64,000 bases of DNA, taken from positions 83,131 through 147,130 of the forward strand of contig JAPKYS010000043.1 of assembly GCA_026394195.1 (NCBI GenBank). The letters are read 5' to 3'. Shown here one piece after another: positions 1 through 57,876 of this stretch. Position numbers and translations under genes: made by a program. The notes under the pieces were generated by a model. That model was not told where the DNA came from and made no database searches. It saw only the letters and a list, made by a program, of their open reading frames with translations. The stretch's first letter is position 1. Each line of letters starts with the position of its first letter. Origin of the DNA: a bacterium (lineage in GTDB: Bacteria > Electryoneota > B3-LCP).

Positions 1-554
1 GAATCGGCTGGGGGTTGGTGACGGACATTCAACCACCCGATTATGAAACCCGTTTGGCTATTCTGCAGAAACGCTCTGACATGGAAGGAATCTACCTTCC
101 AGAAGAAGTGGCTGATTTTCTGGCTCGATACTTCGTTGATAACATTCGAGAACTGGAGAGCGCTTTGATCAGACTGGTGGCGCACAGTTCTATTACCGGG
201 ACCGACCTGACTCTTCAGCTTACCCAGGAGATCTTCAAAAACCAGATCCGTACGACCTCGGTCAGTATCAGCGTCGAGATGATTCTGCAGAAGGTGGCTG
301 AGTTCTACAAGATACCTCTTGACTCGCTGCTTGCACATAACCGCAAGAAGGAAATTGTTTGGGCCAGGCAGGTTGCCATGTACCTCTGCACAATACTGAC
401 CAACGCTTCACTGGAAAGCATCGGTGTGCACATTGGTAACCGCGATCATTCTACCGTGATTCATGCCCGTAATCTGGTGGCGAAGAAAACCGCATCAAAT
501 CAGGATATATTCGGTGAGATAGAGAGTATTAAAGCAAACATATCAACTCACTGA
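1..554 (+). CDS. dnaA: Chromosomal replication initiator DnaA, C-terminal part (domains III-IV); the 5' end is truncated by the window edge
   Basis: The reading frame is open from base 1. The DnaA-box-binding domain IV is present (LAHNRKKEIVWARQVAMYLCTILTN...GNRDHSTVIHA). dnaN lies immediately downstream. Confidence 0.9.
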   Translation, partial: IGWGLVTDIQPPDYETRLAILQKRSDMEGIYLPEEVADFLARYFVDNIRELESALIRLVAHSSITGTDLTLQLTQEIFKNQIRTTSVSISVEMILQKVAEFYKIPLDSLLAHNRKKEIVWARQVAMYLCTILTNASLESIGVHIGNRDHSTVIHARNLVAKKTASNQDIFGEIESIKANISTH

Positions 555-844: not shown

Positions 845-1966
845 ATGAAGTTCAAAGTATCACAGGAACCCTTTCTGCAGGGAGTTTCCAGAGTTTCGGG
901 TGTAATCCCCACCAGAACACCGCTGACCTTTTTATATAATATCCACGCGACTCTTTCTGAAAATAGCCTTACCCTGACGGCATCAGATGGTGACGTTTTT
1001 CTGATCACCACCGTGCAGGTCGAAGGGTTGGAACCAGGGTCGATTTTAGTTCCGGCGCGCCCCTTGCTCGACCTGCTCCGAGAAATGCCAGGGGTTGAAA
1101 TTGAGTTTACCACATCTCCAGAGCAACACCTCATAGTAAACACATCCAAGGGTAAGTTTACTATCCCCGGCGAGGATCCATCCCGCTTTCCTACCGCTCC
1201 TAAGGATTGGCCGCCTCACAAACTGGCATTCAGTTCTCAAGAATTGAAGAATATACTGGATCAAACCACCTTTGCGGTGTCGCATGATGAACTCAGACCG
1301 GCACTAACAGGATTGCTGCTTCAGTTTATGGAAAATGAAATGCGCGCCGTTTCGACGGATGGTCACCGTATGGTAAAATTGGTGCGGACCAGCGCCGAAC
1401 CGGTCGTAGCAGCCGAAGGAGAGGTTGAAGTCATCGTCCCATTACGCACGCTGAATTTGTTGCAGCGCAACCTCGATGAGGTCGAAAAGGTGGATATTTA
1501 CCTGGCGAACAACCGGGTAGTTTTCGACACCGGAAATTTGATAATTACCAGCAAAGTGGTGGAAGGTAAATTCCCTGCCTATGATGCGGTGATTCCCAAA
1601 GACAACCCGCAACATTTACAAATGGATCTCGAACCCTTCACGGCTGCCGTGAAGCGCGTTTCCATCTTTGCGAATCCGATCAATCGGCTGGTTGTACTGA
1701 CATTGGAACAGACCTCCGTAAAATTCTTTGCCGAAGACCCAGACAGCGGACGGCAAGGTGAAGAAGAAGTCGAAGCACTCTACACCGGGCAGAGCTTCCA
1801 GATCGGTTACAACGCCAACTACCTGTTGGAAGCCCTGCGGCACATGCCGGGCAGCGCTATTGACTTATATCTGGGATCACCGACCTCTGCGGGTATCCTT
1901 AAACCGCGTGAAAACGCCACAGGTCAGGACCTGATGATGCTGTTGATGCCAATCAGGTTACAATAA
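845..1966 (+). CDS. dnaN: DNA polymerase III beta subunit (sliding clamp)
   Basis: 373 aa with three-domain beta-clamp architecture. Position directly after dnaA. RBS-like GGGAG lies upstream. Confidence 0.92.
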   Translation: MKFKVSQEPFLQGVSRVSGVIPTRTPLTFLYNIHATLSENSLTLTASDGDVFLITTVQVEGLEPGSILVPARPLLDLLREMPGVEIEFTTSPEQHLIVNTSKGKFTIPGEDPSRFPTAPKDWPPHKLAFSSQELKNILDQTTFAVSHDELRPALTGLLLQFMENEMRAVSTDGHRMVKLVRTSAEPVVAAEGEVEVIVPLRTLNLLQRNLDEVEKVDIYLANNRVVFDTGNLIITSKVVEGKFPAYDAVIPKDNPQHLQMDLEPFTAAVKRVSIFANPINRLVVLTLEQTSVKFFAEDPDSGRQGEEEVEALYTGQSFQIGYNANYLLEALRHMPGSAIDLYLGSPTSAGILKPRENATGQDLMMLLMPIRLQ

Positions 1967-2001: not shown

Positions 2002-2328
2002 TTGCAGGCGATGCGAAAACGAAGCGAACCTAACTCGACCAGACCGGTTGCATTTATTCCGCTTGCCGCGGCGATAGACAGCGCGCTTTCCGCCCCGAAG
2101 ATCAGGCAGCAGATCCTCGCATCAGTTCTCGCATCGGAATGGGAAGAGATCGTAGGAACGACGATCTTCAACCATGTTAAGCCCACGGCATTGTCGGGAA
2201 GCGTCCTTACCTTGCAGGCAGATTCTTCGGTGTGGAGGCAGCAGGTCAGCTTTCTAAAAAATGATCTGAAGGATCGAATCAACTCAAAATTAGGTTACAT
2301 CAAGATTCGAGATATCAAGGTCAGGTAA
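2002..2328 (+). CDS. DUF721 (DciA-like) protein, occupying the usual recF/gyrB neighbourhood
   Basis: 108 aa. Pattern W..IVG...HV.P..L..G.L.L.ADSSVW.Q is typical of the DUF721 proteins that sit between dnaN/recF and gyrB. Confidence 0.55.
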   Translation: MQAMRKRSEPNSTRPVAFIPLAAAIDSALSAPKIRQQILASVLASEWEEIVGTTIFNHVKPTALSGSVLTLQADSSVWRQQVSFLKNDLKDRINSKLGYIKIRDIKVR

Positions 2329-2349: not shown

Positions 2350-2970
2350 ATGCAAAAGAAAAACGTGGATCTATGGGGCATTTCTTTCGCTCTGGTCATC
2401 GTCACTCTTTTTCTACTTCCCACCCTCACATCTTCCAAGGAGGCTGATATGGATGAAATAACCACGAAAGATTTGGTCCGCATGGGCGATATTCCGTTGA
2501 CCCTGGTCGGACCACAGCTCAAGATAGGACAAAAACTTCCTGACGCCACCCTTGTCGACGGCGACATGCAGGAAGTTCTACTCTCGACTTACTTCGGTAA
2601 GATTCTGATCATCAGCACCGTTCCTTCACTGGATACACCGGTCTGCAATGCGCAGACGAGACACTTCAATCTCGAAGCATCATCCCTGGGACCACAGGTT
2701 CAGATCATCACCATCTCCAACGATCTGCCCTTTGCGCAGAAAAGGTTCTGCGCCGCCGAAGGGATCACTCAGGTCAAGGTGCTTTCAGATTATCGGGGTC
2801 AGCAGTTCGCTCGCGCCGCCGGACTATTTATCAAGGAAAACTGGTTGCTGGCGCGCACGGTCGAAGTTGTTGATCAGCGAGGCATCGTGCGGTACATTCA
2901 GATTGTTCCCGTGCTGGGTCAGGAACCGGACTATGAACCGGTCATTGAAGCCGTGAAAAAGCTGCAATAA
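2350..2970 (+). CDS. tpx: Thiol peroxidase (Tpx, atypical 2-Cys peroxiredoxin). An N-terminal hydrophobic extension is present, and the true start may be the internal Met near 2449.
   Basis: LTLVGPQLKIGQKLPDATLVD...PSLDTPVC...NDLPFAQKRFC matches the Tpx family, with both peroxidatic and resolving Cys present. Confidence 0.8.
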   Translation: MQKKNVDLWGISFALVIVTLFLLPTLTSSKEADMDEITTKDLVRMGDIPLTLVGPQLKIGQKLPDATLVDGDMQEVLLSTYFGKILIISTVPSLDTPVCNAQTRHFNLEASSLGPQVQIITISNDLPFAQKRFCAAEGITQVKVLSDYRGQQFARAAGLFIKENWLLARTVEVVDQRGIVRYIQIVPVLGQEPDYEPVIEAVKKLQ

Positions 2971-3108
2971 CCTCCTGCGCAGAAAATCTATCATCTTGTA
3001 CGCCCGCAATGGAATCCAGGGTTGAATGGAAGGGCGCTTACGGCATTGCTTCAGCAGGACAAGATAAAAAAGCGGCAAACCTTTTTTTAACTGGGGAGGG
3101 TTCGCGCG

Positions 3109-3876
3109 ATGGGAACCGTTAATCAGGAACTGCTGGGGAATTTACAGCAAAAGCTGGGCGTGGGGAAAACACAGGTTTACTGGCATATTGCCAGAAGGCG
3201 GGAAGAGACCCGTCTCTCCCGGGACCTTTCTGCGATCGCCCTGGCGCTGGAAACCGGTCTCGACGTTTCCAGGTACGCTACCGAACACGACCTGGAAATT
3301 ATATTGCATTCATCTCCGATTCTGGCGCCCCAGATCGAAAAAATTCTACCTCAGAAACGAGAGGTTTCACGAGCAATCCAGGAATTGAATCAGCAGGAAA
3401 GCAGTTCCAGCCCATTTGTCGATAGCAAGACGATTCATGCCGCCTACCGTAATGCCGAACTCTACGCCAAATTCTACCTCTTCGAAAATTCCCTGCGCAT
3501 GTTGGTTCATGCGATCATGGAGAAGAAATACGGCGCAGAGTGGTGGTATGAGACGGCCCCTCGAGATATCATGAATGCCACCTTCGAGCGCCGGTCCGGA
3601 GAAAAAGAGCCGCGCTGGCGGGGTCAATGGGGCGCGGAACCGATCTATTACACCGACATCAAGGATTTATCGGTGATCATGGAAACGCACCAAGACCTGT
3701 TTTCCCGGTATCTGGGGGAAAACATTAAGATCGACGGCATAATTGATTTGATCGAGCGGATACGCACGTCCTTCGCCTTCACCAATCCGGTTGCACAGAA
3801 AGACCGGGAGCAATTCACCGCGTTTTTGGATCAATGGAACACCCTGCTTGATCAGGCTCATCATAGGATGTCCTGA
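3109..3876 (+). CDS. Hypothetical protein with an N-terminal HTH-like segment and an uncharacterised C-terminal alpha-helical domain
   Basis: 255 aa with a good RBS (GGGGAGGG). LQQKLGVGKTQVYWHIARR resembles a helix-turn-helix. No confident family assignment. Confidence 0.4.
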   Translation: MGTVNQELLGNLQQKLGVGKTQVYWHIARRREETRLSRDLSAIALALETGLDVSRYATEHDLEIILHSSPILAPQIEKILPQKREVSRAIQELNQQESSSSPFVDSKTIHAAYRNAELYAKFYLFENSLRMLVHAIMEKKYGAEWWYETAPRDIMNATFERRSGEKEPRWRGQWGAEPIYYTDIKDLSVIMETHQDLFSRYLGENIKIDGIIDLIERIRTSFAFTNPVAQKDREQFTAFLDQWNTLLDQAHHRMS

Positions 3877-4005
3877 ACTACGGAAAGCGCAGTAAAAGTT
3901 AAAGCAGCGCCCGTGTTGGCCCAAGTGTGTAAGTATTAATTTCAGGTAAAGATACGGACCGCCAGAGTACCAAGCCCTGCCTCTTCGACCAAGCACGAGC
4001 CCTAC

Positions 4006-4884
4006 TTGTCAAAAACCAGGAAAGGTTACGCCTTTGTCATAGCCAGCTCCTTTTTTACCGGGATAATGTACTCCCTCGGAAAGGTGGTGCTCGAAGAAAT
4101 CACGCCGGTCCACATGATCGGTTTGATTTTCTCTGTTTCGGTGCTGCCGCTGGCGGGTTGGTCGATTGCCAATGGCGAATGGAGACAGTTCAGAAATTGT
4201 ACGCGCCGTGATTGGCTCTATATTATTGCCTTCAGTCTGACCTCCATTGCGGCGTTACTTGCCATGTGGACGGGTATCGAGCATCTTGACCCGACGGTCG
4301 CCAGTTTCATCGGGCGGTTGCAAACGTTGGTGGCGGTCTTTTTGGGTATCCTCTTTTTACGCGAACGCTTTCATCTGTCCGAATTCGTTGGCGGGCTGAT
4401 CGTTATCGTCGGTATCGTGATCATCCGCATCTCCTTCGACGTCAGCCTGAGCCTATGGTTCTGGGTGATGGTCGTCAGTGCCTTCTTTTTCGGCGTCACA
4501 GAAGTTTATGCCAAGTTATCGGTTCGCAGCCTGGCTCCCGTGCCGCTCAACCTGGTGCGGAATGGAATTATTGCCATCTTCTTTTTGGTCTGGACCTGGT
4601 TCAGCGAAGCGTCTATATTCAATCTGGGTCGGCTCTGGCCGTATATTATCGCTCTTTCGCTGGGTGGTCCGGTGGGATCGCGCCTCTGCTTTCTGTTTGC
4701 TTTGAAATACATCGACGTTTCCAAAGCCGTGCTGGTCAACCAAATGCAGCCTCTTTTCGTTTCGGCGATAGCATTTACCTTTATCGGAACCATCCCCACC
4801 CTGCAGGAATGGATCGGAGGCGTTCTGGTTTTGGGCGGGTGTGTGGTGTTGATGGGGTGGAGGGGGAAGGTAATCTCGAGGTGA
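4006..4884 (+). CDS. EamA/DMT-family membrane transporter
   Basis: About 10 hydrophobic spans arranged as a duplicated EamA-like repeat. TTG start. Confidence 0.75.
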   Translation: MSKTRKGYAFVIASSFFTGIMYSLGKVVLEEITPVHMIGLIFSVSVLPLAGWSIANGEWRQFRNCTRRDWLYIIAFSLTSIAALLAMWTGIEHLDPTVASFIGRLQTLVAVFLGILFLRERFHLSEFVGGLIVIVGIVIIRISFDVSLSLWFWVMVVSAFFFGVTEVYAKLSVRSLAPVPLNLVRNGIIAIFFLVWTWFSEASIFNLGRLWPYIIALSLGGPVGSRLCFLFALKYIDVSKAVLVNQMQPLFVSAIAFTFIGTIPTLQEWIGGVLVLGGCVVLMGWRGKVISR

Positions 4885-4892
4885 GTAGTACG

Positions 4893-5600
4893 ATGAGTAA
4901 AAAGACGAGCGCCGATCCGAGGAAAGAATTTGAGGAGATGAGGGAAGCGATAACACTTCATTTTCGAGAGTGCTTTAATTATTTGGAAAATTATGATACT
5001 GTTGTAAACATACAGGACAAAGAACGTGAATTGTACCAATTCGCATCTTTCTTTTTTAAAGATCTTCGGAAAGCATTTTGGTGTACTCTTGTTCTTTGGA
5101 TTTATAAATTGACCAAAGATAAATACGTTGGCATGATTCACTTATTGAATTTTGCTGAAGAACACACCGATTTGTTCACTCGAAATGGGACAATTTCACC
5201 TGAATCCATTAAGACTGACAGAAAAACTATTGAAAAAAATCCAGAATTCATTTCGATTATGAATCGGAGACATCATTATTATGGACACTTTAATCCAGAA
5301 TTTGTGAGGCATCCAGAGCTGATGGAAAAAAAGTACCCAATCACCTGGAAGAATCTTACAGCAGCCATAGATGAAGCATGGGAAATTCTTCAAAAATATT
5401 CTTGCTCGTATGATGGTGGATGTTCTGCGAAATATTGGTTAAGAGATGGTTCCGGTGGTATAGGTAAGGTTATCGACTTGATCAGGAATCAGAGTTTGAA
5501 GATTGAGCGCGAGCAACAGGAAGAGTACAATCGTTTGTTTGGTGAAACAGGAATTAATCCAAAGGGCAACCATGGCAGCCGTCAAAGAGATTCTGATTGA
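4893..5600 (+). CDS. Hypothetical protein in a low-GC islet, with a HEPN-like R-x6-H motif (NRRHHYYGH). Candidate abortive-infection or defence effector.
   Basis: The ATG at 4893 lies in frame within the long ORF that starts at 4455. GC is about 33%, against roughly 55-60% in the flanks. It sits immediately upstream of a toxin-antitoxin pair. Confidence 0.5.
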   Translation: MSKKTSADPRKEFEEMREAITLHFRECFNYLENYDTVVNIQDKERELYQFASFFFKDLRKAFWCTLVLWIYKLTKDKYVGMIHLLNFAEEHTDLFTRNGTISPESIKTDRKTIEKNPEFISIMNRRHHYYGHFNPEFVRHPELMEKKYPITWKNLTAAIDEAWEILQKYSCSYDGGCSAKYWLRDGSGGIGKVIDLIRNQSLKIEREQQEEYNRLFGETGINPKGNHGSRQRDSD

Positions 5601-5670
5601 AAAACAAGGTTTGAAGCCAGGATGAGAACAACAGGAAGAGTACAAATGATTTTAAACAGGATAAGAAATC

Positions 5671-5895
5671 ATGCAAAAAACCGTGACGATAGAACAAATT
5701 GAAAAATCACTAGAGAGCCTTCCAGCGAATGAGCAGTTGCGATTGATTGAAAAACTTGCTCGTCTCATTCGAAAGCAGGAAAAGAAAAGAAACCAAACCC
5801 TTATCTGGTCTGATCTTTATGGAAGCGGTAAAGGTATCTGGGATGGTGAGGATGCTCAGGAGTATGTCAATCGTATGAGGGAAGACAGATCATGA
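5671..5895 (+). CDS. Type II antitoxin (small, VapB-like partner of the downstream PIN toxin)
   Basis: 74 aa. There is a 4-nt ATGA overlap with the downstream PIN gene. Low GC. Confidence 0.55.
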   Translation: MQKTVTIEQIEKSLESLPANEQLRLIEKLARLIRKQEKKRNQTLIWSDLYGSGKGIWDGEDAQEYVNRMREDRS

Positions 5896-6344
5896 CCATC
5901 AAAAGCGAGATACGCCGGATCGATACGCTCTTTATTGATACCGCGCCCATCATCTACTTTATCGAATCACACCCCCAATATGGACCGATTGTTGATGAAG
6001 TCATGCAGTCGATGCAACGGGGAAATCTTTTCGGCCTTTCATCCGTCATCACGTTGACTGAAGTCTTACCAAAACCCACAGAATTAAAAAAAGAAGATCT
6101 CGTAAAAAAATTCATAACTTTCTTAAAAAACGGTCAGAATTTTGAGTTACTTGATGTTAATCTAAACATAGCCGAGTTAGCCGGTCGGATGCGAGGAATG
6201 TATCCCTCGCTGAAGACAATCGATGCAATTCAGCTTGCTACTGCAATTGAGGTGAAAGCAGACGCCTTTTTAACCAATGACCTTAGACTAAAACAAATCA
6301 GGGAAATCCGGGTAATTTGTTTGAAGGATTTCCTAAAACAATAA
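5892..6344 (+). CDS. vapC: PIN-domain toxin (VapC-like ribonuclease)
   Basis: Acidic PIN residues are present (FIDTAPIIY..E...T..E......DAIQLATAIE....LTND). Confidence 0.8.
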   Translation: MTIKSEIRRIDTLFIDTAPIIYFIESHPQYGPIVDEVMQSMQRGNLFGLSSVITLTEVLPKPTELKKEDLVKKFITFLKNGQNFELLDVNLNIAELAGRMRGMYPSLKTIDAIQLATAIEVKADAFLTNDLRLKQIREIRVICLKDFLKQ

Positions 6345-6366
6345 GCGTGAAGAATAAGTTACCCCC

Positions 6367-8352
6367 ATGCCTGACATAGAAAAAATCGAACCGATCGAAA
6401 CCTACGACGCGCAAAAGATCACCGTCTTAAAAGGTCTGGAAGCGGTGCGCAAACGCCCGGCCATGTACATCGGCGACGTTTCGGCGCGCGGGTTGCACCA
6501 CCTGGTCTACGAAGTGGTGGATAACGCCGTGGATGAAGCCATGGCGGGATTCTGCACGGAGATCGAGGTGAACCTCCACCCGGACGATTCCGCAGAAGTC
6601 TGGGATAACGGCCGCGGCATCCCCATCGACAAACATAAGACCGAAAAAGTGTCAGCCCTGCAGGTGGTCATGACCATGCTGCACGCCGGCGGCAAATTCG
6701 ACAAGCAGTCGTACAAGGTTTCCGGAGGACTGCACGGTGTCGGCGTCTCGGTGGTGAACGCGCTTTCGCTCTGGTGCTGGGCGGAAGTTTGCCGCGAAGA
6801 AAAACTCTACCGTCAGAGCTATCAGTGCGGTCACGCTGACGGACCGGTTCAGGAGACCGGCAAATGCCGCCAGCGCGGCACCCGGGTGCGCTTTTTCCCC
6901 GATCCGGAAATCTTTAAGGAGACTCGATTCAGCTTCGATACGGTCTCCAACCGACTTCGGGAATTAGCCTTCTTGAACAGCGGACTCAAGATTACCGCCC
7001 GCGACCTGCGAGCCGAAGAAGCAAGGGAAAGGGAGTTCCAATACAAGGGTGGACTATCCGAGTTCGTGGCTTATCTCGATGAAACCCGCATTGCGCTGCA
7101 TCAGAGTCCGATCATCATCACCGGCGAGAAAGAGGGTGTCGTCGTTGATATCGCCATGGAGTACAACGATTCCTACCAGGAAAACATCTTCACCTACGTC
7201 AATAATATCTACACGTTAGAAGGCGGTACGCACCTTTCTGGCTTCAAAGCAGCGCTGACCCGGACTTTAAACTATTGGGCGCTGAAAAACAATATCTTCA
7301 AGACTGATAAGTTCACACTATCAGGTGAAGACACGCGCGAAGGGCTTACGGCAGTCCTTTCCATCAAAGTGCCGGAACCGCAGTTTGAAGGGCAGACCAA
7401 GACCCGTCTGGGCAATTCCGAAGTCAAAGGCATCGTCGAATCTATCGTCAATGATGGTTTGACCGAATACCTGGAAGAACACCCAGGTTACGCCCGCCGC
7501 ATCCTTGATAAGTGCACGTCATCTGCGCGAGCCCGTGAAGCTGCTCGCAAAGCCAAGGACCTGGTGCGTCGCAAAGGCGCCTTGGAATCAGGTTCCCTGC
7601 CCGGCAAGCTGGCGGATTGTTCCATCAACGACCCGGAACACTGCGAACTATTCATCGTGGAAGGCGATTCCGCAGGAGGATCCGCCAAGCAAGGGCGCGA
7701 CCGCCGCTTCCAGGCAATTCTGCCGCTGCGAGGTAAAATCCTCAACGTCGAAAAGGCTCGCCCCGATAAAATCCTGTCCAACGAAGAAATCCGCACCCTC
7801 ATTCAGGCGATCGGCACGGGTATCGGCGGGGACGAACCGCTTGAGGGCAGCGACGGTGAAGCAGACCCGACCGCCGGAGAAAACGGCAATTTCAACCTGA
7901 CCAAACTGCGCTATGGCAAGATCATCATCATGACCGATGCCGACGTCGACGGGGCTCACATCCGCACGCTGCTGCTGACCTTCTTCTTCCGGCACATGAA
8001 GCAGTTGGTGGAAACCGGCCACATCTTCATTGCGCAGCCGCCCCTGTACCGCATCACCAAGAGCAAGAGCGATCATTACGCCTACGATGAAAAAGAGATG
8101 AACGAGGTACTCAAGCGGATCGGCGGCATGCAGGGCGCTCACATGCAGCGTTATAAGGGCTTGGGCGAGATGAACCCCGATCAGCTCTGGACTACCACCA
8201 TGGACCCTGAACGCCGCACTGTGCTCAGGGTTGAATTGGAAGACGCCGCCACCGCCGACAAGATGTTCGAAACCCTGATGGGAGATCACGTGGACAAAAG
8301 ACGCGCCTTCATCGAAGAAAATGCTCGTTACGTCCGCAATCTGGACATTTAA
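6367..8352 (+). CDS. gyrB: DNA gyrase subunit B
   Basis: GHKL ATPase N-terminus (LEAVRKRPAMYIGD..GLHHLVYEVVDNAVDE), a TOPRIM region (EGDSAGGSAKQGRD) and the C-terminal GyrB tail. Confidence 0.95.
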   Translation: MPDIEKIEPIETYDAQKITVLKGLEAVRKRPAMYIGDVSARGLHHLVYEVVDNAVDEAMAGFCTEIEVNLHPDDSAEVWDNGRGIPIDKHKTEKVSALQVVMTMLHAGGKFDKQSYKVSGGLHGVGVSVVNALSLWCWAEVCREEKLYRQSYQCGHADGPVQETGKCRQRGTRVRFFPDPEIFKETRFSFDTVSNRLRELAFLNSGLKITARDLRAEEAREREFQYKGGLSEFVAYLDETRIALHQSPIIITGEKEGVVVDIAMEYNDSYQENIFTYVNNIYTLEGGTHLSGFKAALTRTLNYWALKNNIFKTDKFTLSGEDTREGLTAVLSIKVPEPQFEGQTKTRLGNSEVKGIVESIVNDGLTEYLEEHPGYARRILDKCTSSARAREAARKAKDLVRRKGALESGSLPGKLADCSINDPEHCELFIVEGDSAGGSAKQGRDRRFQAILPLRGKILNVEKARPDKILSNEEIRTLIQAIGTGIGGDEPLEGSDGEADPTAGENGNFNLTKLRYGKIIIMTDADVDGAHIRTLLLTFFFRHMKQLVETGHIFIAQPPLYRITKSKSDHYAYDEKEMNEVLKRIGGMQGAHMQRYKGLGEMNPDQLWTTTMDPERRTVLRVELEDAATADKMFETLMGDHVDKRRAFIEENARYVRNLDI

Positions 8353-8366
8353 ATTTATTTTCCCGG

Positions 8367-8396
8367 GAACAAACCGGAAAAAGTTTCGGTTTGTGA
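8367..8396 (+). terminator. Rho-independent terminator hairpin after gyrB
   Basis: ACAAACCG-GAAAAAGTTT-CGGTTTGT inverted repeat followed by T-rich sequence. Confidence 0.5.
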
Positions 8397-8557
8397 TGTA
8401 GGGCACATTTATGCTCTCTAAAAATGTGCTGTTTATGGGTACCATATGACCGATGTCGGTTCTACTTAAGCGGGGCGAAGGGATCGGCGCGGGGGTACGC
8501 ACAACGATCGGATGCTCGAATGATAGGGGGTGGGATGATGAATAGGGAGAAGACTGC

Positions 8558-9328
8558 ATGTCCATACTGCTATTTGTGGATGAAAGCCGCTGGGAGTCGC
8601 CGGGCAAGCCGGATTATTACGCCACCATGTCCGGCATCGCCGTCGAAGAGCTCTCCTATGTGGATTTCTGCCGGAGGCTGATGAAGCTTAAGGGTCGCTT
8701 CTTCAAGCGTCCCGGTATCGACGAGTACGCTCTGCAGGGCCGCGCCCTGTTGTGCAACCGCGCGCTGACCAGCTACCGCAAAGTCGAATTCGTACAGGAG
8801 CTTTTCAGCCTGTGCCGTTTGCAAAAGGTTGTCGCCTTTTCCACCACCCGCAAGTGTTTGCCTTCCCGGGACGAACGAACACCCAGCGAACTCCCCACCG
8901 CATTCCCTATGGCTGCCATTTCACCCACCGATAAATACAGCGGGGAGGTCTGCTCGATTCTGCTGGCATACCTGGTCGAACGAGTCAACACCTTCATGCT
9001 GGAACGGCATCCCGGCCAAGTTGCCAAGATAATCTTCAAGACCGAAGAAGCCAACCACGATCGCCTCTTGAGCTCCTGCCTGATGAATTTCATCTTCAAG
9101 ACCTCGTTCGGCAGCGGGTTTCACGGTATTTTGGGGACACCCTTCTTCGCTCCGGCGTCGCATTCGCCCGGTTTGCAGTTGGCGGATCTGTTCGCTTACA
9201 TCATCAACCAGCACCACGGCGGGCGCAAGGAGATGCGAGATTTCTTCGAAGAGGTGCTGACCATGCAGTTTATTTCTTCGATTGAGCAGGATGAATTTGA
9301 ACTACGGGGGATGAACTTGATCGAATGA
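8558..9328 (+). CDS. DUF3800-family protein
   Basis: N-terminal LLFVDESRW and C-terminal GLQLADLFAYII motifs characteristic of DUF3800. Confidence 0.65.
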   Translation: MSILLFVDESRWESPGKPDYYATMSGIAVEELSYVDFCRRLMKLKGRFFKRPGIDEYALQGRALLCNRALTSYRKVEFVQELFSLCRLQKVVAFSTTRKCLPSRDERTPSELPTAFPMAAISPTDKYSGEVCSILLAYLVERVNTFMLERHPGQVAKIIFKTEEANHDRLLSSCLMNFIFKTSFGSGFHGILGTPFFAPASHSPGLQLADLFAYIINQHHGGRKEMRDFFEEVLTMQFISSIEQDEFELRGMNLIE

Positions 9329-9360
9329 TGCAGATTTGGTGGCACGAGGCACGAGGCACG
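9329..9360. repeat. Tandem heptamer array (GGCACGA x4) immediately after the stop codon
   Basis: Direct reading: GGCACGAGGCACGAGGCACGAGGCACGAG. Confidence 0.9.
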
Positions 9361-36599: not shown

Positions 36600-36650
36600 G
36601 GAAATAATTGGAGATTGGAGATTGAAGATTGAAGATTGAAGAATTAAGAG
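36600..36650. repeat. Tandem heptamer array (GATTGGA x2, GATTGAA x3, GAATTAA) directly after the stop codon
   Basis: Direct reading. Confidence 0.9.
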
Positions 36651-37076: not shown

Positions 37077-38888
37077 ATGAGCTATCTCGATCAAGCTATT
37101 GAAAAAGGATATGCCATAATAACAGGTGAAGAAAACAAAAAACGCATCACCTACATGGCTGTTAATCACTCTGAAAGATATTCAGATCCGGAGGAACAAG
37201 TCCGCGCAGAGTATTGGGCTGAATTAATTTTTCGATACGGCTATGAACCTTCCCGCATCGGCGTTGATGTTACTGTTCCAGATAGAACTCCCAAGGATGC
37301 GGCAGATTTAGTTGTATTCTCAAATGATACTCGCACACGACCTTTCGCGGTAATCGAATGCAAACGAGATGGCGTAACCGATGCTGAATTCGCTCAAGCC
37401 GTCGAACAAGCTTGCGGCAACGGCACCTGGGCGAAATTCCGCGCCCAATACATCGGTGTTATCGCCGGGCAGACCCGCCGTTTCCTCGATTTCTCCGAAA
37501 AATATGGCGTTCTGGAACGTGAGGCTAACATTATCGCTGATTTGCCTCGCCAGTACGGAAAACCAGAGGAATGGCGTTTTCTAAAAGGCACCGCAGACGA
37601 TATCCAGCCTGTCAGTAAAGAAACCCTCATAGCCACCATAAAAAAATGCCACCAAACCCTATGGGGTGGCGGGCGCTTATCTCCCCCCATGGCTTTCGGT
37701 GAATTATGCAAACTCCTCTTTGTAAAAATCCAAGACGAAAAAGTACCACGGAAAAATGGTCAACCCTATGAATTTCAGATAAAAACTCACGAGCCAAGCC
37801 GTAAGCTCGCTGAACGAATCAAAGCTATTTATGAAATTGCTAAGAAAAAAGATCCGCAAGTATTCACCGACACAATTCGTATAGATGATGCAACATTGCG
37901 CATCCTTGTTTCACATATGGAAGCAGTAAGTTTCAGCAAGACCGATTTAGATACGAAAGGTGTCGCCTTCGAGCAGTTCATGGATGGATTTTTCAAAGGA
38001 GATTTTGGGCAATACTTTACACCACGGGAAATTATTGCATTCGCAGTTGAAATGATGCAACCTAAATCGGATGATTTAGTTATCGATCCAGCTTGCGGCT
38101 CTGGCGGTTTCCTTCTTTATGCTCTTGATTCAGTTCGTCGCGAGGCTGCAAGTTATCATGCTTTGGATAGCGTGGATCATTACAAACATTGGCACGATTT
38201 CGCAGAAAAACGCCTCTTTGGTATCGAAATCAATGACGAGATCGCCCGAGTTGCCAAGATGAATATGATCTTACATGACGATGGCCATAGTAACGTCGTT
38301 GGTGAAGACGCTTTAGATCGTTTCGAGCGCATTCGTGAACGCACCAGTAATAATGGGTTTAAAGAAAATAATTTCGATCTAATTTTGACTAACCCTCCAT
38401 TTGGCTCGCAGGTCAATTTGACGGAACGACCTTACTTATCCGATTATGAACTTGGTAATAAGGAGGATAAGAAAGGAAAACGTTCCCCACGTACGAACCA
38501 AAAAACGGAGATACTCTTTATCGAGCGTGTCTTCCAATTTCTAAAGGCTGGAACCGGTCGCGCGGCCATGGTTTTGCCGGATGGAATTCTTACAAATTCA
38601 TCTCTTCAAGATGTCCGAGATTTTATACTTAAAAACTTCCAACTTCTTGCTGTAGTAAGTTTACCACAGACTTCTTTCGCTCATTTCGGTGCAGGAGTTA
38701 AAGCAAGTCTAGTTTTTCTCCGTAAACGGGCAGATAATGAAAAGTCCAGCGATAATGAAGCAATCTTCATGGCCACGCCTGAGAAAATCGGGTATGACGC
38801 AACGGGCCGTAAGTGCGATAATCAGTTGCCGGAAGTTATCAAGCAATACGTTGAATTCAAGAAGAACCCGGCACGTTTTTTCGTCTAA
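37077..38888 (+). CDS. Type IIB (BcgI-like) restriction-modification catalytic subunit: an N-terminal PD-(D/E)xK endonuclease domain fused to a gamma-class N6-adenine DNA methyltransferase
   Basis: Nuclease motif D..LVVF ... VIECKRD. Methylase motif I VIDPACGSGGFL and motif IV LILTNPPFG. The length (603 aa) and domain order match the BcgI A subunit. Confidence 0.7.
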   Translation: MSYLDQAIEKGYAIITGEENKKRITYMAVNHSERYSDPEEQVRAEYWAELIFRYGYEPSRIGVDVTVPDRTPKDAADLVVFSNDTRTRPFAVIECKRDGVTDAEFAQAVEQACGNGTWAKFRAQYIGVIAGQTRRFLDFSEKYGVLEREANIIADLPRQYGKPEEWRFLKGTADDIQPVSKETLIATIKKCHQTLWGGGRLSPPMAFGELCKLLFVKIQDEKVPRKNGQPYEFQIKTHEPSRKLAERIKAIYEIAKKKDPQVFTDTIRIDDATLRILVSHMEAVSFSKTDLDTKGVAFEQFMDGFFKGDFGQYFTPREIIAFAVEMMQPKSDDLVIDPACGSGGFLLYALDSVRREAASYHALDSVDHYKHWHDFAEKRLFGIEINDEIARVAKMNMILHDDGHSNVVGEDALDRFERIRERTSNNGFKENNFDLILTNPPFGSQVNLTERPYLSDYELGNKEDKKGKRSPRTNQKTEILFIERVFQFLKAGTGRAAMVLPDGILTNSSLQDVRDFILKNFQLLAVVSLPQTSFAHFGAGVKASLVFLRKRADNEKSSDNEAIFMATPEKIGYDATGRKCDNQLPEVIKQYVEFKKNPARFFV

Positions 38889-38989
38889 GCCCCGCCGAAC
38901 CGGGCAAGGCGAACTGCTTTGCCGTCAAGCGGGGCGTAACGAAAGAGCGGTTTGATCCCAAATTTATTATTCATGGTGGCAATCAAACT

Positions 38990-40270
38990 TTGAAGGGAAT
39001 AACTTCTTACTTACTAGGTGATTTAGTCGTGCGAGAACCGGAATATGGTTCGGGCGAAAGAGCCGTACCAGTTAGAGATCCAAATGATATAAAATATATT
39101 CGTATCACTGACTTCAATGACGACGGAATTGTACCTGCCAACGAATTTGCCACTGCTGAGAATATCGAAGACCGATTTCTGCTGGCTGATGGTGATATTC
39201 TATTTGCAAGGAGCGGAGCAACAGCGGGCAAGACATTTATCTTTTCGTCAGAAATAGGGAAATCAATATTTGCGGGCTACTGTATTCGATTCAGGTTCGA
39301 TATCAAAAAGGTCATTCCTAAGTTCGTTTACTATTATACGAAATCAAATCGTTATCGGGCATGGGTTCGATCGATTCAACGTCCTTCCGGTCAACCGAAC
39401 ATCAATAAGGAGGAGTTTAAATCATTTACTATTCCCCTTCCTCCCACGTCCGTTCAGCTTAAGCTTGTTCGAGAGATGGAGCAAGAGCAAGAATCAAGGC
39501 GTCGCAATTTGGAACAGGCTGAAGTTCTACTTGATGGATTAGATGCATTTCTTCTTGATTGTATTGGGCTAGCTATACCTATGCTAGATAATCGCTTGGC
39601 TTATGCTTTGAAGCAATCAGTGCTTCATAGGTCGAAACAGATCGGGGCGGATTATTTTCATCCAGAACGAATTAATGCAATTAGGGCTATCCAGACAGCG
39701 AAAAAAGTAAAGCACGCCGTGCGACTGGAAGATATCGCCTGTTTCTTGCGTGATTATACAACCGAATATAAACCGGAGCAATACCTAGGACTAGCAGGGG
39801 TTCAAAGCCATACTGGTGAACTAACCGAAACAACAGAAGAACCAGGCTCAGGGCAAGCTTCGATCTTCGAGGAAAACGATGTATTGTTCGCTCGCTTGCG
39901 CCCCTACTTGAATAAGGTTTGGCGAGCAGAACAGGACGGCGTATGCTCGACAGAATTTCACGTTATCCGTATTAGGAATGATGTGAATTACCTGCTGCCT
40001 GATTATCTCGCGGCTGTCCTGCGTTCGTCTGTCGTTGTTGCTCAGACCAAACATATGATGACTGGCAACACCCACCCACGACTCGCCAACGAGGATGTTG
40101 TGGACTTGCTCATTCCTATACCCAGCATTAATATGCAGCATGAGGTCGTGGAAGAATTACAAAACCGTCGCATGCAGGCCCGCCGCCTGCGCGAAGAAGC
40201 GGCTAAAGAGTGGAAGGCGGCTAAGGCTCGTTTTGAGGAAAAGTTGTTAGGCGAGGAGAAAATAAAATGA
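38990..40270 (+). CDS. Restriction-modification specificity (S) subunit with two target-recognition domains
   Basis: Duplicated TRD architecture with a central conserved region and a C-terminal coiled region (EELQNRRMQARRLREEAAKEW). TTG start. The reading frame is open for about 45 more codons upstream with no canonical start codon. Confidence 0.72.
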   Translation: MKGITSYLLGDLVVREPEYGSGERAVPVRDPNDIKYIRITDFNDDGIVPANEFATAENIEDRFLLADGDILFARSGATAGKTFIFSSEIGKSIFAGYCIRFRFDIKKVIPKFVYYYTKSNRYRAWVRSIQRPSGQPNINKEEFKSFTIPLPPTSVQLKLVREMEQEQESRRRNLEQAEVLLDGLDAFLLDCIGLAIPMLDNRLAYALKQSVLHRSKQIGADYFHPERINAIRAIQTAKKVKHAVRLEDIACFLRDYTTEYKPEQYLGLAGVQSHTGELTETTEEPGSGQASIFEENDVLFARLRPYLNKVWRAEQDGVCSTEFHVIRIRNDVNYLLPDYLAAVLRSSVVVAQTKHMMTGNTHPRLANEDVVDLLIPIPSINMQHEVVEELQNRRMQARRLREEAAKEWKAAKARFEEKLLGEEKIK

Positions 40271-40938
40271 ATCAATCACTAATCTATCTGATGGATGAAA
40301 TTTGCGCAGGTGTAGAAATCTACTTTACGGGTCGCTTAGGGAGTCAGTATTTAAAAACTGCCTTTCTTCTATGTGATGATTATTCAGAGCTTATCTCAAA
40401 ACTTTTCCTACTTATCGACAATCCGAAATGGACCGAGATGAAAGCCAATTCTAATTTTAAAAGTTACCCAGATATAATGGCTGAGGTAGAAACAACTACT
40501 TCAAAAAATAATCCTAATAAATTGGAAAAAGTAAGAGAATTGATTAGCGCAATGAAAAAACGTAGAAAGCGCCGTAATGACTTTTTTCATTCTACGAGTC
40601 TACTTGATTTGAGCGTAACGAATAGAAATTGTGTCGAAGCCTTTTGTGATCTTCTAGAATATGGGGATATTTTGTTTGGGGTAAATTGGCGCACGACGTT
40701 AGAAGGTTCTAGAAATCTATCGACCTTTGATGTATTGCTCCGGTTAGAAAGGCATTCATTTTCTGATCCATCAATCACTCAAAAAATGAATCGTGTTCTG
40801 CAGAATTGGCCTAGAAATATTAAAAATGCGAAGCGGGCAGGTGTCCATTTGGCAGAATATCCAGAAGACCTTCATCTAAGACTGTGTGTAACCTGGGGAG
40901 GAAACGAACTTAGAGATAAATTAAAAACTTTACTCTGA
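40267..40938 (+). CDS. Small low-GC protein with a HEPN-like R-x4-H motif (RRNDFFHS), translationally coupled to the S gene
   Basis: ATGA overlap with the S-gene stop. GC is far below the neighbouring genes. No family assigned. Confidence 0.45.
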   Translation: MNQSLIYLMDEICAGVEIYFTGRLGSQYLKTAFLLCDDYSELISKLFLLIDNPKWTEMKANSNFKSYPDIMAEVETTTSKNNPNKLEKVRELISAMKKRRKRRNDFFHSTSLLDLSVTNRNCVEAFCDLLEYGDILFGVNWRTTLEGSRNLSTFDVLLRLERHSFSDPSITQKMNRVLQNWPRNIKNAKRAGVHLAEYPEDLHLRLCVTWGGNELRDKLKTLL

Positions 40939-43667: not shown

Positions 43668-45629
43668 ATGCGCAGTTCACCTTTCTTTATTCTTGCGGTT
43701 CTGCTTCTGACCGCCACCACTGCCTTCGCTCAGAACCTAACTGTCGAAGTCACACCGCAAATCAACACCGTTGAGATCCCACCTGAAGGCGGATCGTTCA
43801 GCTTTTATGTTACGGTCGCCAACCACGAACCATTACCCCAGCAAGTCACCGCATGGTGCCTCCTTACCACCCCGATGGGAGACCAACGAAACATCCTCCT
43901 TCCCGTGACATTTGACCTTGCGGCCGTGCAAATCCAAGAGCGATACTATACACGATTCGTTCCAGCAGCTTCGCCTGTTGGAAATTATGTATTGACGGCG
44001 AACATCGGCATCTACCCCAATACCATTTGGGATAGCGATCAATGTACCATTAGTAAGCTGAACCCGCCGGTGTGGGTAGCGCGCTATAGTAGCCCCGGGA
44101 ATTTTGGAGATGGAGCTAATTCCATCGCATTGGACAGCAGCGGCAATGTCTATGTGACGGGTCATTACCAAGGGGGTGGGACTGATTACGACTATGCCAC
44201 CATCAAGTACAACTATGCCGGGCAGCAACAGTGGGTAGTGCGCTACAACGGACCGGATAACGGCTGGGATTACCCTACCAGCCTGGCGGTGGACGGCAGC
44301 GGCAACGTCTACGTAACGGGTGGAAGTGATGGAAGCTGGACTTATGCCGACTACGCCACCATCAAGTACAATTCCACCGGAGTTCAGGAGTGGGTGGCGC
44401 GCTACAACGGGCCGGGAAATAGCTCTGATGGGGCTACCAGCCTGGCGGTGGACGGCAGCGGCAACGTCTACGTGACAGGTGAAAGCTGGGGAAACGGGAC
44501 CGCTGCCGATTACGCCACTGTCAAATACAACTCCGCCGGGCAGCAGCAGTGGGTGGCGCGCTACGATGGTACTGGAAATGATGATGATTGCGCTAATTCC
44601 ATCGGATTAGACGGCTTTGGCAACGTCTGCGTTACGGGCAGCAGTCATGGTAGTGGGTCTGGCAGGAACTACGTCACCATTAAATACAACGCCAACGGCA
44701 ATATGCTCTGGGTGGATCGTTATATTGGATCGTGGGATGATGAAGCTAAATCTCTCACAGTGGAAAGTGGTGGTAACGTCTACGTGACCGGTAAAAGCGA
44801 TGGAGACTATGGAACTATCAAATACGACGCTAACGGTAATCGGCTTTGGATGGCTCGCTACAATGGACCGGCGAACATAAACGATGAAGCAAATTCCATC
44901 GCTCTGGACAGTTTCGGTAACGTCTACGTGACGGGCCACAGTTATAGTAGTTGGACTGGTGGGGACTACGCCACGATTAAATATGACGTCGATGGCAATC
45001 AACTCTGGGTCGCGCGCTACAATGGATCTGGAAATTATGAAGATGCAGCTAGATCTCTCACAGTAGACTCCTACGGTAATGTCTATGTGACAGGCTATAG
45101 CCAGGGAATTTGGAATAATATGGACTATACCACTATCAAATACGATTCTAACGGCAATCAGCTTTGGGTGGCGCGCTACAATGGGCCGGGGAATAATTTT
45201 GACGCGGCTTCTTCACTCGCTTTGGATACTTTTGGCAACGTTTATGTGACGGGCAGGAGCGTAGGAAGCAGGACTGATAAAGACTTTTGCACCATCAAAT
45301 ATTCCGCTACTGATCTGCCCAACTGGCAGCAGCCAGTGGCTACGGTTTTCGGCGCGCCGCTGCCAGCGGAATACCGTTTGGAGCAGAACTACCCCAATCC
45401 CTTCAACCCCACCACTACCATCAGTTATCAGCTTCCATCCAGAAGCCAGGTGAAGTTGGAGGTGTTCGACGTTTCCGGGCGGTTGGTTACCACTTTAATC
45501 AACGGCTGGAGGGAGGCGGGGTCGCATGAGGTGACCTTCGACGGGTCGGGGTTAGCGGCGGGGGTGTATGTTTACCGACTGCAGGTGGGGGAGTATACCG
45601 GGGTGCAGAAAATGGTGCTTTTAAAATAG
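43668..45629 (+). CDS. SBBP beta-propeller repeat protein with a T9SS C-terminal sorting domain
   Basis: About 10 repeats of GNVYVTG.S...DYATIKYN..G...WVARYNGPGN. C-terminus ends ...GVYVYRLQVGEYTGVQKMVLLK. Confidence 0.8.
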   Translation: MRSSPFFILAVLLLTATTAFAQNLTVEVTPQINTVEIPPEGGSFSFYVTVANHEPLPQQVTAWCLLTTPMGDQRNILLPVTFDLAAVQIQERYYTRFVPAASPVGNYVLTANIGIYPNTIWDSDQCTISKLNPPVWVARYSSPGNFGDGANSIALDSSGNVYVTGHYQGGGTDYDYATIKYNYAGQQQWVVRYNGPDNGWDYPTSLAVDGSGNVYVTGGSDGSWTYADYATIKYNSTGVQEWVARYNGPGNSSDGATSLAVDGSGNVYVTGESWGNGTAADYATVKYNSAGQQQWVARYDGTGNDDDCANSIGLDGFGNVCVTGSSHGSGSGRNYVTIKYNANGNMLWVDRYIGSWDDEAKSLTVESGGNVYVTGKSDGDYGTIKYDANGNRLWMARYNGPANINDEANSIALDSFGNVYVTGHSYSSWTGGDYATIKYDVDGNQLWVARYNGSGNYEDAARSLTVDSYGNVYVTGYSQGIWNNMDYTTIKYDSNGNQLWVARYNGPGNNFDAASSLALDTFGNVYVTGRSVGSRTDKDFCTIKYSATDLPNWQQPVATVFGAPLPAEYRLEQNYPNPFNPTTTISYQLPSRSQVKLEVFDVSGRLVTTLINGWREAGSHEVTFDGSGLAAGVYVYRLQVGEYTGVQKMVLLK

Positions 45630-57261: not shown

Positions 57262-57876
57262 TTATAGGCCAAGTTCGCGGAGGAATTTCGCGAACGAGGG
57301 ACTTCTTTTTTTGATTTGTGGATCCTTCATCTTCAGTGATTTCGCCAAGCTTGGTAAATGTTTTGTTTTGTGATATGAATTATTCTTATAGAAGCCATCG
57401 CGGAGTATTTTTATCGCATCTTGACAATCCGCTCGATTTTTTACCCGATTTGCAACTTCTTTCTTCTCGAACAACTTACAATTGAAAACTTCTTGATCCG
57501 CCAAAACCCAATTTTCCACCATGTGGTCAGCGCAAATGACCGAGAAATTTCTTGCAGTAATTCCGTTCACCTGTTCTTCAATTCTATCCCTAACCATTTC
57601 AGCAAATTCCCCCGGGCATTGGGGATTATCTTCCCGATCAAACACAAGGACTATCTTTTCTGGTTTTCTTTTTAAAGCCGCCTCAACCTGTCGGAAAACT
57701 TTTGGACTTACCCGCAGCTGTTGATTTCTAAAGGTTATTGCTTCAGTTTTTCGTGCCTCGCTGACCAATAAGTTGAATAATCTCAAAATATACGGCAGTA
57801 CTTGATACTCGGATTCACCTGGCACCAATAAGACTATTTTCGGACGATTTAACTTTGGAGGTTTATTCTTCTTCAT
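57262..57876 (-). CDS. Small TOPRIM-like protein (resembles the DUF4276/OLD-family nuclease core), partner of the upstream ABC ATPase
   Basis: Conserved acidic motifs KIVLLVPGESE, KIVLVFDREDN and ICADHMVENW. The start overlaps the ATPase stop by 14 nt (or 47 nt if the GTG at 57909 is used). Low GC. Confidence 0.55.
   Translation of the reverse strand: MKKNKPPKLNRPKIVLLVPGESEYQVLPYILRLFNLLVSEARKTEAITFRNQQLRVSPKVFRQVEAALKRKPEKIVLVFDREDNPQCPGEFAEMVRDRIEEQVNGITARNFSVICADHMVENWVLADQEVFNCKLFEKKEVANRVKNRADCQDAIKILRDGFYKNNSYHKTKHLPSLAKSLKMKDPQIKKRSPSFAKFLRELGL

Follow-up and report, generated by a model that had tools for sequence, protein, structure and literature searches.

A probable exchange hot spot for toxin and defense genes between EamA and gyrB in LCP-89-like bacteria, occupied by an AT-rich AbiU2-family HEPN gene and a VapBC-like pair

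We analyzed a 64,000-nucleotide (nt) stretch of a bacterial contig (GTDB lineage Bacteria; Electryoneota; B3-LCP; assembly GCA_026394195.1, contig JAPKYS010000043.1, forward-strand positions 83,131 to 147,130; hereafter, the window), in which three AT-rich genes lie between an EamA transporter gene and gyrB, near the probable origin of replication. These genes, at window positions 4893-6344 (hereafter, the islet), encode a HEPN protein of the AbiU2 family and the two proteins of a VapBC-like toxin-antitoxin (TA) pair, i.e., a small antitoxin-like protein and a PIN-domain toxin. Our findings make it likely that the islet is accessory toxin/defense DNA made up of two independent modules, and that the EamA-gyrB junction in which it resides has been a hot spot of exchange for a long time.

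The host is close to candidate phylum LCP-89, a phylum-rank lineage of the FCB group: in a gyrB-anchored scan over GTDB species genomes, gyrB identity to the window was 80% in locus L002, 78% in L004 and 77% in L003 (a metagenome-assembled genome (MAG) designated 'candidate division LCP-89'), and at most 67% in the others. Of the species-level relatives whose context is intact, the nearest two, L002 and L003, present the order dnaA-dnaN-dciA-Swt1HEPN-EamA-gyrB-DUF3800, with EamA directly adjoining gyrB across an AT-rich spacer of 145 nt or roughly 90 nt, and no AbiU2, antitoxin, PIN or tpx gene. This adjacency, which an earlier reading of the letters alone (the sequence-only reading) had proposed as a check, identifies the islet as accessory DNA. 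The same reading had pictured the islet as wedged into an otherwise conserved neighborhood, and had named as a refuting outcome that relatives might hold the same genes as core content. No such core content was seen, L002 and L003 being empty and the cargo of the other relatives differing; the islet is not a one-off, however, as five relatives hold AbiU2 at this very place (Table 1).

Table 1. Gene order in relatives that carry an AbiU2 gene (labels of the AbiU2 homologues in parentheses; numbers after gene names are protein lengths)
Locus	Gene order
L083 (P0002)	EamA - YgiT zinc finger - AbiU2 - orf41 - gyrB
L085-88/L090 (P0004)	EamA - AbiU2 - orf138 - antitoxin73 - PIN148 - orf81 - gyrB - DUF3800
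L089 (P0005)	zinc-finger end - EamA 3' relic - AbiU2 - 67 nt - gyrB
L131 (P0006)	EamA - DUF4258 - YgiT zinc finger - VapB-like + HicB-like relics - AbiU2 - 19 nt - gyrB
L132 (P0007)	ParE - EamA - AbiU2 (stop-interrupted) - HicA - HicB - 23 nt - gyrB
L084 (P0003), 1.3-kb contig	AbiU2 - antitoxin - PIN; flanks not visible

In all, an AbiU2 gene is present in six of the eight junctions seen. The six best matches of an exhaustive AbiU2 search were all located, five of them at the EamA-gyrB junction of LCP-89-like genomes and the sixth on the short contig L084. Junction AbiU2 genes are AT-rich in every genome (GC 0.32-0.43, versus 0.52-0.60 in the flanks, i.e., 15-25 points lower), and TA cassettes rotate around them. 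As for the flanks, EamA orthologues beside the junction are 47-61% identical in the relatives and gyrB is 76-80% identical in LCP-89-like relatives; an exact-sequence look-up of the window EamA returned its own contig alone. In L132, the stop-interrupted AbiU2 gene (5001-5750) yields a 177-amino acid (aa) product and a 46-aa open reading frame (ORF) that together span the family length, and is either a pseudogene or an assembly error.

Comparing the junction genes among genomes, we found pairwise identities of 24-36% for AbiU2 and 75-95% for the N-terminal 300 residues of gyrB, and the two were uncorrelated (Mantel r = -0.09, p = 0.65). The contrast was strong between L085 and L132, whose proteins are 95% (gyrB) and 93% (EamA) identical, yet only 33% identical in AbiU2, with different TA cargo. 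At the DNA level, these two genomes are 88% identical through EamA and 88% identical again from the first gyrB base, whereas between the EamA stop and the gyrB start (2.36 kb versus 1.25 kb) no DNA similarity could be detected. Taken together, the L085/L132 contrast and the Mantel test rule out simple vertical co-divergence of AbiU2 with its host, including vertical descent with fast divergence. Either whole inter-gene segments were replaced, or very old alleles were kept as a polymorphism; replacement would most simply proceed by homologous recombination in the conserved flanks. AbiU2 would then be the recurring occupant of the junction across the lineage, its alleles being exchanged and not just passed down, with small TA cassettes coming and going beside it. 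Of note, the DNA identity of L085 and L132 is mosaic (76% over dnaA-dnaN-dciA, 84% over tpx, 88% over EamA and gyrB-DUF3800), which suggests that recombination reshuffled the flanks of the hot spot as well.

The first islet gene is, judging from its sequence, a highly divergent bona fide member of the AbiU2 HEPN family. Its product matches the Pfam profile HEPN_AbiU2 (PF18734) over positions 8-172 of 193, at 36.3 bits versus a cut-off of 26.8 (E 5e-9), and its homologues carry the same precomputed Pfam label. The sequence-only reading had already suspected a HEPN/Abi-type effector, and rightly so, albeit from an R-x6-H motif counted from R125: the conserved pair is R126/H132, spaced as R-x5-H. 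These two residues are the only invariant columns in a 26-sequence family alignment (A1) and are invariant in the close subfamily too, the family consensus at the motif being RRxKYYAHFDK. An AlphaFold2 model built on A1 (pLDDT 89.6) is entirely helical, gave no significant Foldseek match in the PDB, and the protein shares 14% sequence identity with the integron-cassette HEPN structure 3jrt. Since the structure is consistent but not discriminating, the HEPN assignment relies mainly on the hidden Markov model (HMM) and the motif.

This protein stands very much apart. A word-indexed search of 5.8 billion proteins matched only the protein itself, and a sequence search of the PDB returned nothing. 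An exhaustive HMMER scan of 1.84 billion cluster representatives recovered 40 relatives at E <= 1e-3, the best of them 34% identical, and a profile search added only family members from short contigs. Scanning for loci with a second alignment (A2) gave one further copy of the L085 locus and distant, solitary AbiU2 genes with mixed neighbors; among the distant metagenome genes some adjoin PIN or Phd-type TA genes, and none has gyrB or EamA nearby.

The AbiU2 family has been assigned to abortive infection, as predicted RNase Abi effectors (PMC3710099; for HEPN, also PMC3632139), and the HEPN superfamily comprises dimeric, metal-independent RNases with an R-x4-6-H signature, an activity that is predicted and in several families shown (PMC3710099, PMC3632139). 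By analogy with HEPN toxins, an AbiU2 dimer would cut RNA via R126/H132, and such cutting, if triggered by phage, would arrest growth or abort infection. In line with this, a single AbiU2-HEPN integron cassette was reported to protect E. coli against T4 and T7 (bioRxiv 10.64898/2026.03.17.712381).

With the AbiU2 family (PF18734, PMC3710099; type, Lactococcus lactis AbiU2) the window protein shares the HMM match, an all-helical modelled fold, its build as a small single-domain protein, a motif that falls within the R-x4-6-H signature and a position among TA/defense genes. It differs in being at most 34% identical to any of the 1.84e9 representatives, in having no AbiU1 partner, Sel1-repeat gene or restriction-modification operon beside it, and in its fixed place upstream of gyrB in one candidate phylum, with an activity that is predicted. 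Specifically, Pfam scans of the neighborhood revealed no domain of an AbiU1 (ParB/AIPR/COG1479-type) partner, and without this partner the gene is not a member of the lactococcal two-gene AbiU system (abiU1 + abiU2). The Vibrio mimicus AbiU2-HEPN integron cassette (bioRxiv 10.64898/2026.03.17.712381), considered along with 3jrt, is likewise a solitary small HEPN gene and exchangeable cargo; unlike it, the window gene has neither integrase nor attC, and its resemblance to 3jrt is limited to the sequence identity and non-significant Foldseek match given above.

We then turn to the other two genes, which the sequence-only reading had correctly described as a small antitoxin and a PIN toxin with an ATGA overlap. 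The PIN protein matches PF01850 at 46.5 bits versus a cut-off of 23.6, its acidic residues D16, E57, D111 and D130 are invariant in 20 homologues, and the two genes overlap by 4 nt (ATGA, 5892-5895). At E <= 1e-5 the PIN protein has more than 2000 homologues, in bacterial phyla and in archaea alike; identity is 54-62% for the best 120, among which are proteins of Nitrospirae, Deltaproteobacteria and archaeal MAGs. Among the loci examined, a 73-aa gene followed with a 4-nt overlap by a 148-aa PIN gene was seen in L124-L129, L085 and L084, and recurs in unrelated contexts without AbiU2; the 73-aa products match the window antitoxin at 50-56% identity. Moreover, PINs from other phyla resemble the window PIN more (mean identity 58%) than does its counterpart at the L085 junction (45%). 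Since the pair recurs without AbiU2, and its PIN is nearer those of other phyla, AbiU2 and the VapBC-like pair are, by sequence comparison, best described as independent cargo sharing the hot spot. Given that five relatives carry AbiU2 with differing TA cargo, and that the TA pair is independent and widespread, the site is a long-standing exchange hot spot rather than the scene of a single insertion.

With VapBC, a type II TA system, the pair shares the PIN domain with four acidic residues, the upstream antitoxin, the 4-nt overlap and its recurrence as a unit. The 74-aa protein gave no significant match in Pfam, NCBIfam, PADLOC, PHROGs or PDB sequences, and the same was true of its L126 homologue; specifically, it matches no AbrB, RHH, Phd/YefM or HTH class in Pfam or NCBIfam, unlike VapB antitoxins, and PDB sequence searches with the PIN protein and the antitoxin detected no related solved structure. 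The pair thus appears VapBC-like on its toxin side and in its organization, with an antitoxin outside every named VapB class. The PIN RNase, acting through D16/E57/D111/D130, would be kept inactive by the 74-aa antitoxin translated just upstream; as expected of type II systems, a labile antitoxin would neutralize the RNase toxin, and the pair would also stabilize the DNA that carries it. In L124/L125 (1-3825), a homologous 73-aa + PIN148 pair and an MNT/HEPN pair lie between two LPG_synthase_TM-matching fragments, as if the TA genes had split an LPG_synthase_TM gene.

The islet is also set apart by its composition. At a GC of 0.3905, versus a window mean of 0.512, it is the lowest stretch of its size in the 64 kb: only 0.08% of same-sized segments have a GC this low, the minimum being the islet itself. 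A maximum-likelihood two-breakpoint segmentation of 3000-9000 delimited a low-GC block at 4922-6390 (0.389 inside, 0.541 outside), its borders ~30-45 nt from the 4893-6344 of the sequence-only reading, whose sharp GC drop over exactly three genes was thereby upheld. The range that it gave, 33-38%, holds for the AbiU2 gene (37.6%, with 300-nt windows falling to 32%) and not for the TA pair (~41%). Uniform GC and codon usage on recalculation, which the sequence-only reading had named as a refuting outcome, was not seen: GC at third codon positions is 0.36, 0.39 and 0.44 in the three islet genes, versus 0.67 in EamA and 0.69 in gyrB. The islet contains exactly three ORFs, none of them a recombinase, and its borders present no repeat, integrase, tRNA or relic of either flank; a search inside the islet for relics of the gyrB 5' end or the EamA 3' end gave scores at shuffle level. 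The tRNAs lie far off, at 23.9 kb and 53.1 kb, no Rfam family was found in 4700-6500 at E <= 1, and the whole window yields only three tRNAs. With no recombinase, border repeats or nearby tRNA, the islet is not an integrase-mediated genomic island.

A direct repeat of 17 nt had been taken by the sequence-only reading to flank the islet, as a duplication or insertion scar. The repeat is real, with an exact copy at 5514-5530, but its second copy lies at 5629-5645, one nt from the position given, and the 17-mer is only the 3' end of a 44-nt direct repeat (75% identity, z = 7.3 versus shuffles). Both copies, 115 nt apart, lie within the islet and hence flank nothing; being internal, private to the window genome and absent from its relatives, the repeat is no scar of the islet. 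By our own arithmetic, chance alone would produce ~0.001 exact 17-mers this close together in 64 kb; the only others repeated within 300 nt in the window are near 9341 and near 36619 (short tandem repeats) and at 44196-44916 (direct repeats with a period of 144-159 nt, which may be a repeated segment of a coding region). The one near 9341 is a tandem heptamer, GGCACGA, at 9341-9360, just after the DUF3800 gene.

Copy 1 is native to the AbiU2 gene, as the tail encoded downstream of it (YNRLFGE..INP) aligns with the tail of homologue P0005. Copy 2 is non-coding, since stops interrupt the matching frame, which reads KQGLKPG*EQQEEYK*. It falls in a decayed stretch of 33 codons (5572-5670) that is collinear with 32 intact codons extending the L084 antitoxin ORF at its N-terminus (MSAVKEVSLKQ...); the DNA alignment of window 5480-5720 with L084 640-910, along with three-frame translations, gave z = 4.0, and the start of the decayed stretch resembles small 'MSAIKE..' ORFs of L083 and L085. 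In L084 the AbiU2 stop lies within CCATGA; at that place the window shows CCATGG instead, and its AbiU2 frame continues through nine further codons. No comparable repeat was found in relatives, nor upstream of the homologous TA pairs in L084, L085, L124 and L126. We conclude that the 44-nt repeat arose locally and in the window genome alone, by duplication or by gene conversion between the AbiU2 tail and the decaying spacer. A full 115-nt tandem duplication, from the AbiU2 tail to the antitoxin start, is possible as its source, the parts downstream of the 44-mer being only marginally similar (p about 0.05).

Could the islet instead have arrived all at once, as a three-gene island inserted horizontally in the fairly recent past that left the 17-nt repeat behind as a scar of insertion or duplication? 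The sharpness of the low-GC block, the absence of the islet from L002 and L003, and a repeat far beyond chance would suit such an event, which we nonetheless consider unlikely: the scar is already contradicted by two internal copies, the borders bear neither repeats nor flank relics, no integrase or tRNA accompanies the islet, five other related genomes hold AbiU2 alleles at the same junction, the TA pair has a separate, wide distribution, and phages, plasmids and viral contigs yielded no relatives. It is less credible still that AbiU2 is a vertical, fast-evolving, lineage-specific gene of intrinsically low GC, tied to gyrB/EamA through housekeeping RNA processing or a gyrase-related role, and hence no defense DNA. 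Such a gene might be expected to keep its place, as AbiU2 does by directly preceding gyrB at six of eight junctions over spacers down to 19-67 nt, to have its nearest relatives all at the EamA-gyrB locus and to be low in GC in every genome; yet AbiU2 is absent in L002 and L003, stop-interrupted in L132, surrounded by TA cassettes that turn over, and, most tellingly, uncorrelated with host divergence, down to 33% identity between genomes whose gyrB is 95% identical.

The three genes might also form one system, e.g., an AbiU2 sensor/regulator with a VapBC effector, or a small protein that neutralizes both toxins. In support of this, the AbiU2-antitoxin-PIN order recurs in the window, L085 and L084, the genes are co-oriented and tightly packed, and in L084 the AbiU2 stop overlaps the next ORF start (ATGA), an arrangement of which the window keeps a decayed collinear stretch. 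We find the idea rather doubtful, as AbiU2 occupies the junction without the PIN pair in L083, L089, L131 and L132, the 73/148 pair turns up in unrelated contexts that lack AbiU2, in L085 the pair is set off from AbiU2 by a 138-aa membrane-protein gene and a gyrB 5' relic, and the window PIN is nearer other-phylum PINs than that of L085. As for the 17-44-nt repeat, it has a slim chance of being a regulatory element, either an antitoxin operator or a duplicated promoter piece for the TA operon. Type II antitoxins commonly bind repeats in their own promoters; copy 1 overlaps a sigma-70-like site (TTGAGC-17-TACAAT, 5503-5531) and only 26 nt lie between copy 2 and the antitoxin start that follows it. 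Against this stand the 115-nt spacing, unusual for operators, the lack of an equivalent upstream of the homologous TA pairs in L084, L085, L124 and L126, which led us to reject a conserved operator, and a consensus promoter scan whose matches were not above shuffle expectation (7 sites versus 4.1 +/- 2.3, although the promoter consensus of the host phylum may differ).

Several points weigh against a hot spot holding two independent toxin/defense modules. The comparison covers just eight junctions, mostly from MAG or metagenome contigs, and an ancient balanced polymorphism would look no different from exchange. Three genomes share the AbiU2-antitoxin-PIN trio, leaving some room for functional coupling. 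PADLOC, NCBIfam and PHROGs recognize neither the AbiU2 protein nor the TA pair, and searches of viral contigs, phage genomes and plasmids turned up no AbiU2 relatives, hence no mobile carrier to show a route of exchange. Finally, lactococcal AbiU2 was not toxic in E. coli (PMC3985639).

The tight packing of the window islet suggests how it may be expressed. Because the 8-nt and 22-nt junctions are too short for promoters, and the empty sites carry an AT-rich spacer before gyrB, the islet would be co-transcribed with EamA, and gyrB would now depend on a promoter within the islet or ahead of it. Another, improbable scheme goes further, and takes the EamA-gyrB junction of LCP-89-like bacteria for a dedicated, integrase-less cassette-capture site at the gyrB 5' end, with the array read into gyrB. 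Cassettes would enter ~66 nt into gyrB and bring along a replacement gyrB 5' end, and the hyper-divergent, AT-rich AbiU2 gene would stay as a permanent resident. The scheme was raised because two truncated gyrB starts sit just upstream of cassettes in a single relative, L085. If true, toxin/defense expression would be tied to a supercoiling-sensitive gyrase operon, and the array would be hard to delete.

The relics themselves are as follows. In L085, a 69-nt copy of the genome's own gyrB start (6877-6945; 59/69 identical) lies just upstream of orf81 and reads MPHIETPSTEKYDAEQIAVPKG*, with the stop at codon 23, and a weaker copy (6112-6168) directly precedes the antitoxin-PIN pair; in L083, a marginal gyrB relic (4943-4961) comes before orf41. 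These relics suggest that one fixed position in the start of gyrB was where cassettes came in. In L089, a 25-aa relic of the EamA C-terminus (108-191; 56% identical to L002 or L131 EamA) lies between a YgiT zinc-finger gene and AbiU2, and attests to rearrangement at the left edge of the hot spot.

The features of the locus are collected in Table 2. From the ORF listing and a direct reading of 3600-7000, the gene row is dnaA-dnaN-dciA-tpx-(Swt1-like HEPN)-EamA-[islet]-gyrB-DUF3800, all co-oriented and tightly packed. The dnaA-dnaN spacer, AT-rich at a GC of about 0.35, holds at 565-610 two perfect TTATCCACA DnaA boxes (the only ones in the window) and one single-mismatch box, and is probably oriC. 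As the DnaA boxes cluster there, the islet lies ~4.3 kb from the probable origin; together with the gene order, they agree with the dnaN-gyrB origin context, between EamA and gyrB, that the sequence-only reading had assigned to the islet.

Table 2. Features of the islet and its surroundings (window positions)
Feature	Position	Strand	Remarks
dnaA, partial	15-554		
dnaN	845-1966		
dciA	2002-2328		
Redoxin/tpx gene	2350-2970	+	
Swt1-like HEPN protein, 255 aa	3109-3876	+	
EamA transporter gene	4006-4884	+	left flank, conserved hot-spot anchor; Pfam EamA 6.2e-39
Left junction	4885-4892		8 nt, EamA stop to AbiU2 start; GC change-point ~4922
AbiU2-family HEPN gene, 235 aa	4893-5600	+	GC 0.376; predicted RNase-type Abi/toxin effector
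HEPN R-x5-H motif	5268-5288	+	codons R126-H-H-Y-Y-G-H132; RHHYYGH
Direct repeat copy 1	5487-5530	+	AbiU2 3' tail; encodes NQSLKIEREQQEEYN, part of the charged C-terminal tail
Decayed 33-codon stretch	5572-5670	+	antitoxin frame; reads MAAVKEILIEKQGLKPG*EQQEEYK*F*TG*EI
Direct repeat copy 2	5602-5645	+	in the 70-nt spacer before the antitoxin; last 17 nt exact
Antitoxin-like gene, 74 aa	5671-5895	+	partner of the PIN toxin; outside all named families
PIN-domain (VapC-like) toxin gene, 150 aa	5892-6344	+	Pfam PF01850, 6.9e-12
Right junction	6345-6366		22 nt, PIN stop to gyrB start
gyrB	6367-8352	+	right flank, conserved hot-spot anchor
DUF3800 protein gene	8558-9328	+	

Other genes of the row vary as well. 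The Swt1-like HEPN gene, of native GC, matches PF18731 exactly at the cut-off and the PADLOC candidate PDC-M34B at 2.7e-26; it is kept at the same position in L002 and L003 (52-57% identity) and absent in L083, L085, L131 and L132. The tpx gene is present in L085, L131 and L132 and absent in L002, L003 and L083, and since its presence varies too, the whole dciA-gyrB interval differs among relatives. In outgroups such as L008, dciA directly adjoins gyrB. On the other side, DUF3800 lies directly 3' of gyrB in every LCP-89-like relative seen (53-70% identity).

Elsewhere in the window, a second low-GC islet (57262-59182, minus strand, GC about 0.40) encodes a 439-aa AAA_15/AAA_21 ATPase and a 215-aa DUF4276 protein, and looks like a two-gene defense-type module inserted beside a 2-oxoacid:ferredoxin oxidoreductase-like gene. 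A restriction-modification cluster of moderately low GC (37077-40938, plus strand) comprises a 603-aa N6_Mtase protein with an HSDR_N_2 N-terminus, a 426-aa type I specificity subunit and an overlapping 223-aa ORF; the latter has no Pfam match, contains an R-x4-H-like string (RNDFFH) and may be another HEPN-type partner.

Hot spots of defense/TA islands between core genes have been described for enterobacterial, Pseudomonas and Vibrio genomes. The EamA-gyrB junction shares with them its fixed flanks, variable toxin/defense cargo, empty sites, low GC and breakpoints at the ends of the flanking genes. It differs from them in that the islet lies inside the dnaA-dnaN-gyrB origin row, within 8 and 22 nt of its flanks, that one family, AbiU2, persists there as highly divergent alleles, that integrase and mobile-element genes are missing, and that one relative keeps relic gyrB 5' ends beside its cassettes.

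Taken singly, the components of the islet are ordinary, namely one very divergent AbiU2-HEPN member and one VapBC-like pair with a nameless antitoxin family. Less usual are the position before gyrB in the origin row, the deeply divergent, AT-rich alleles of a single family and the lack of any mobility gene. The hot spot thus offers a tractable natural case of how defense/TA cargo is exchanged without integrases, and allows one to ask whether cargo lodged directly before an essential gene is thereby stabilized.

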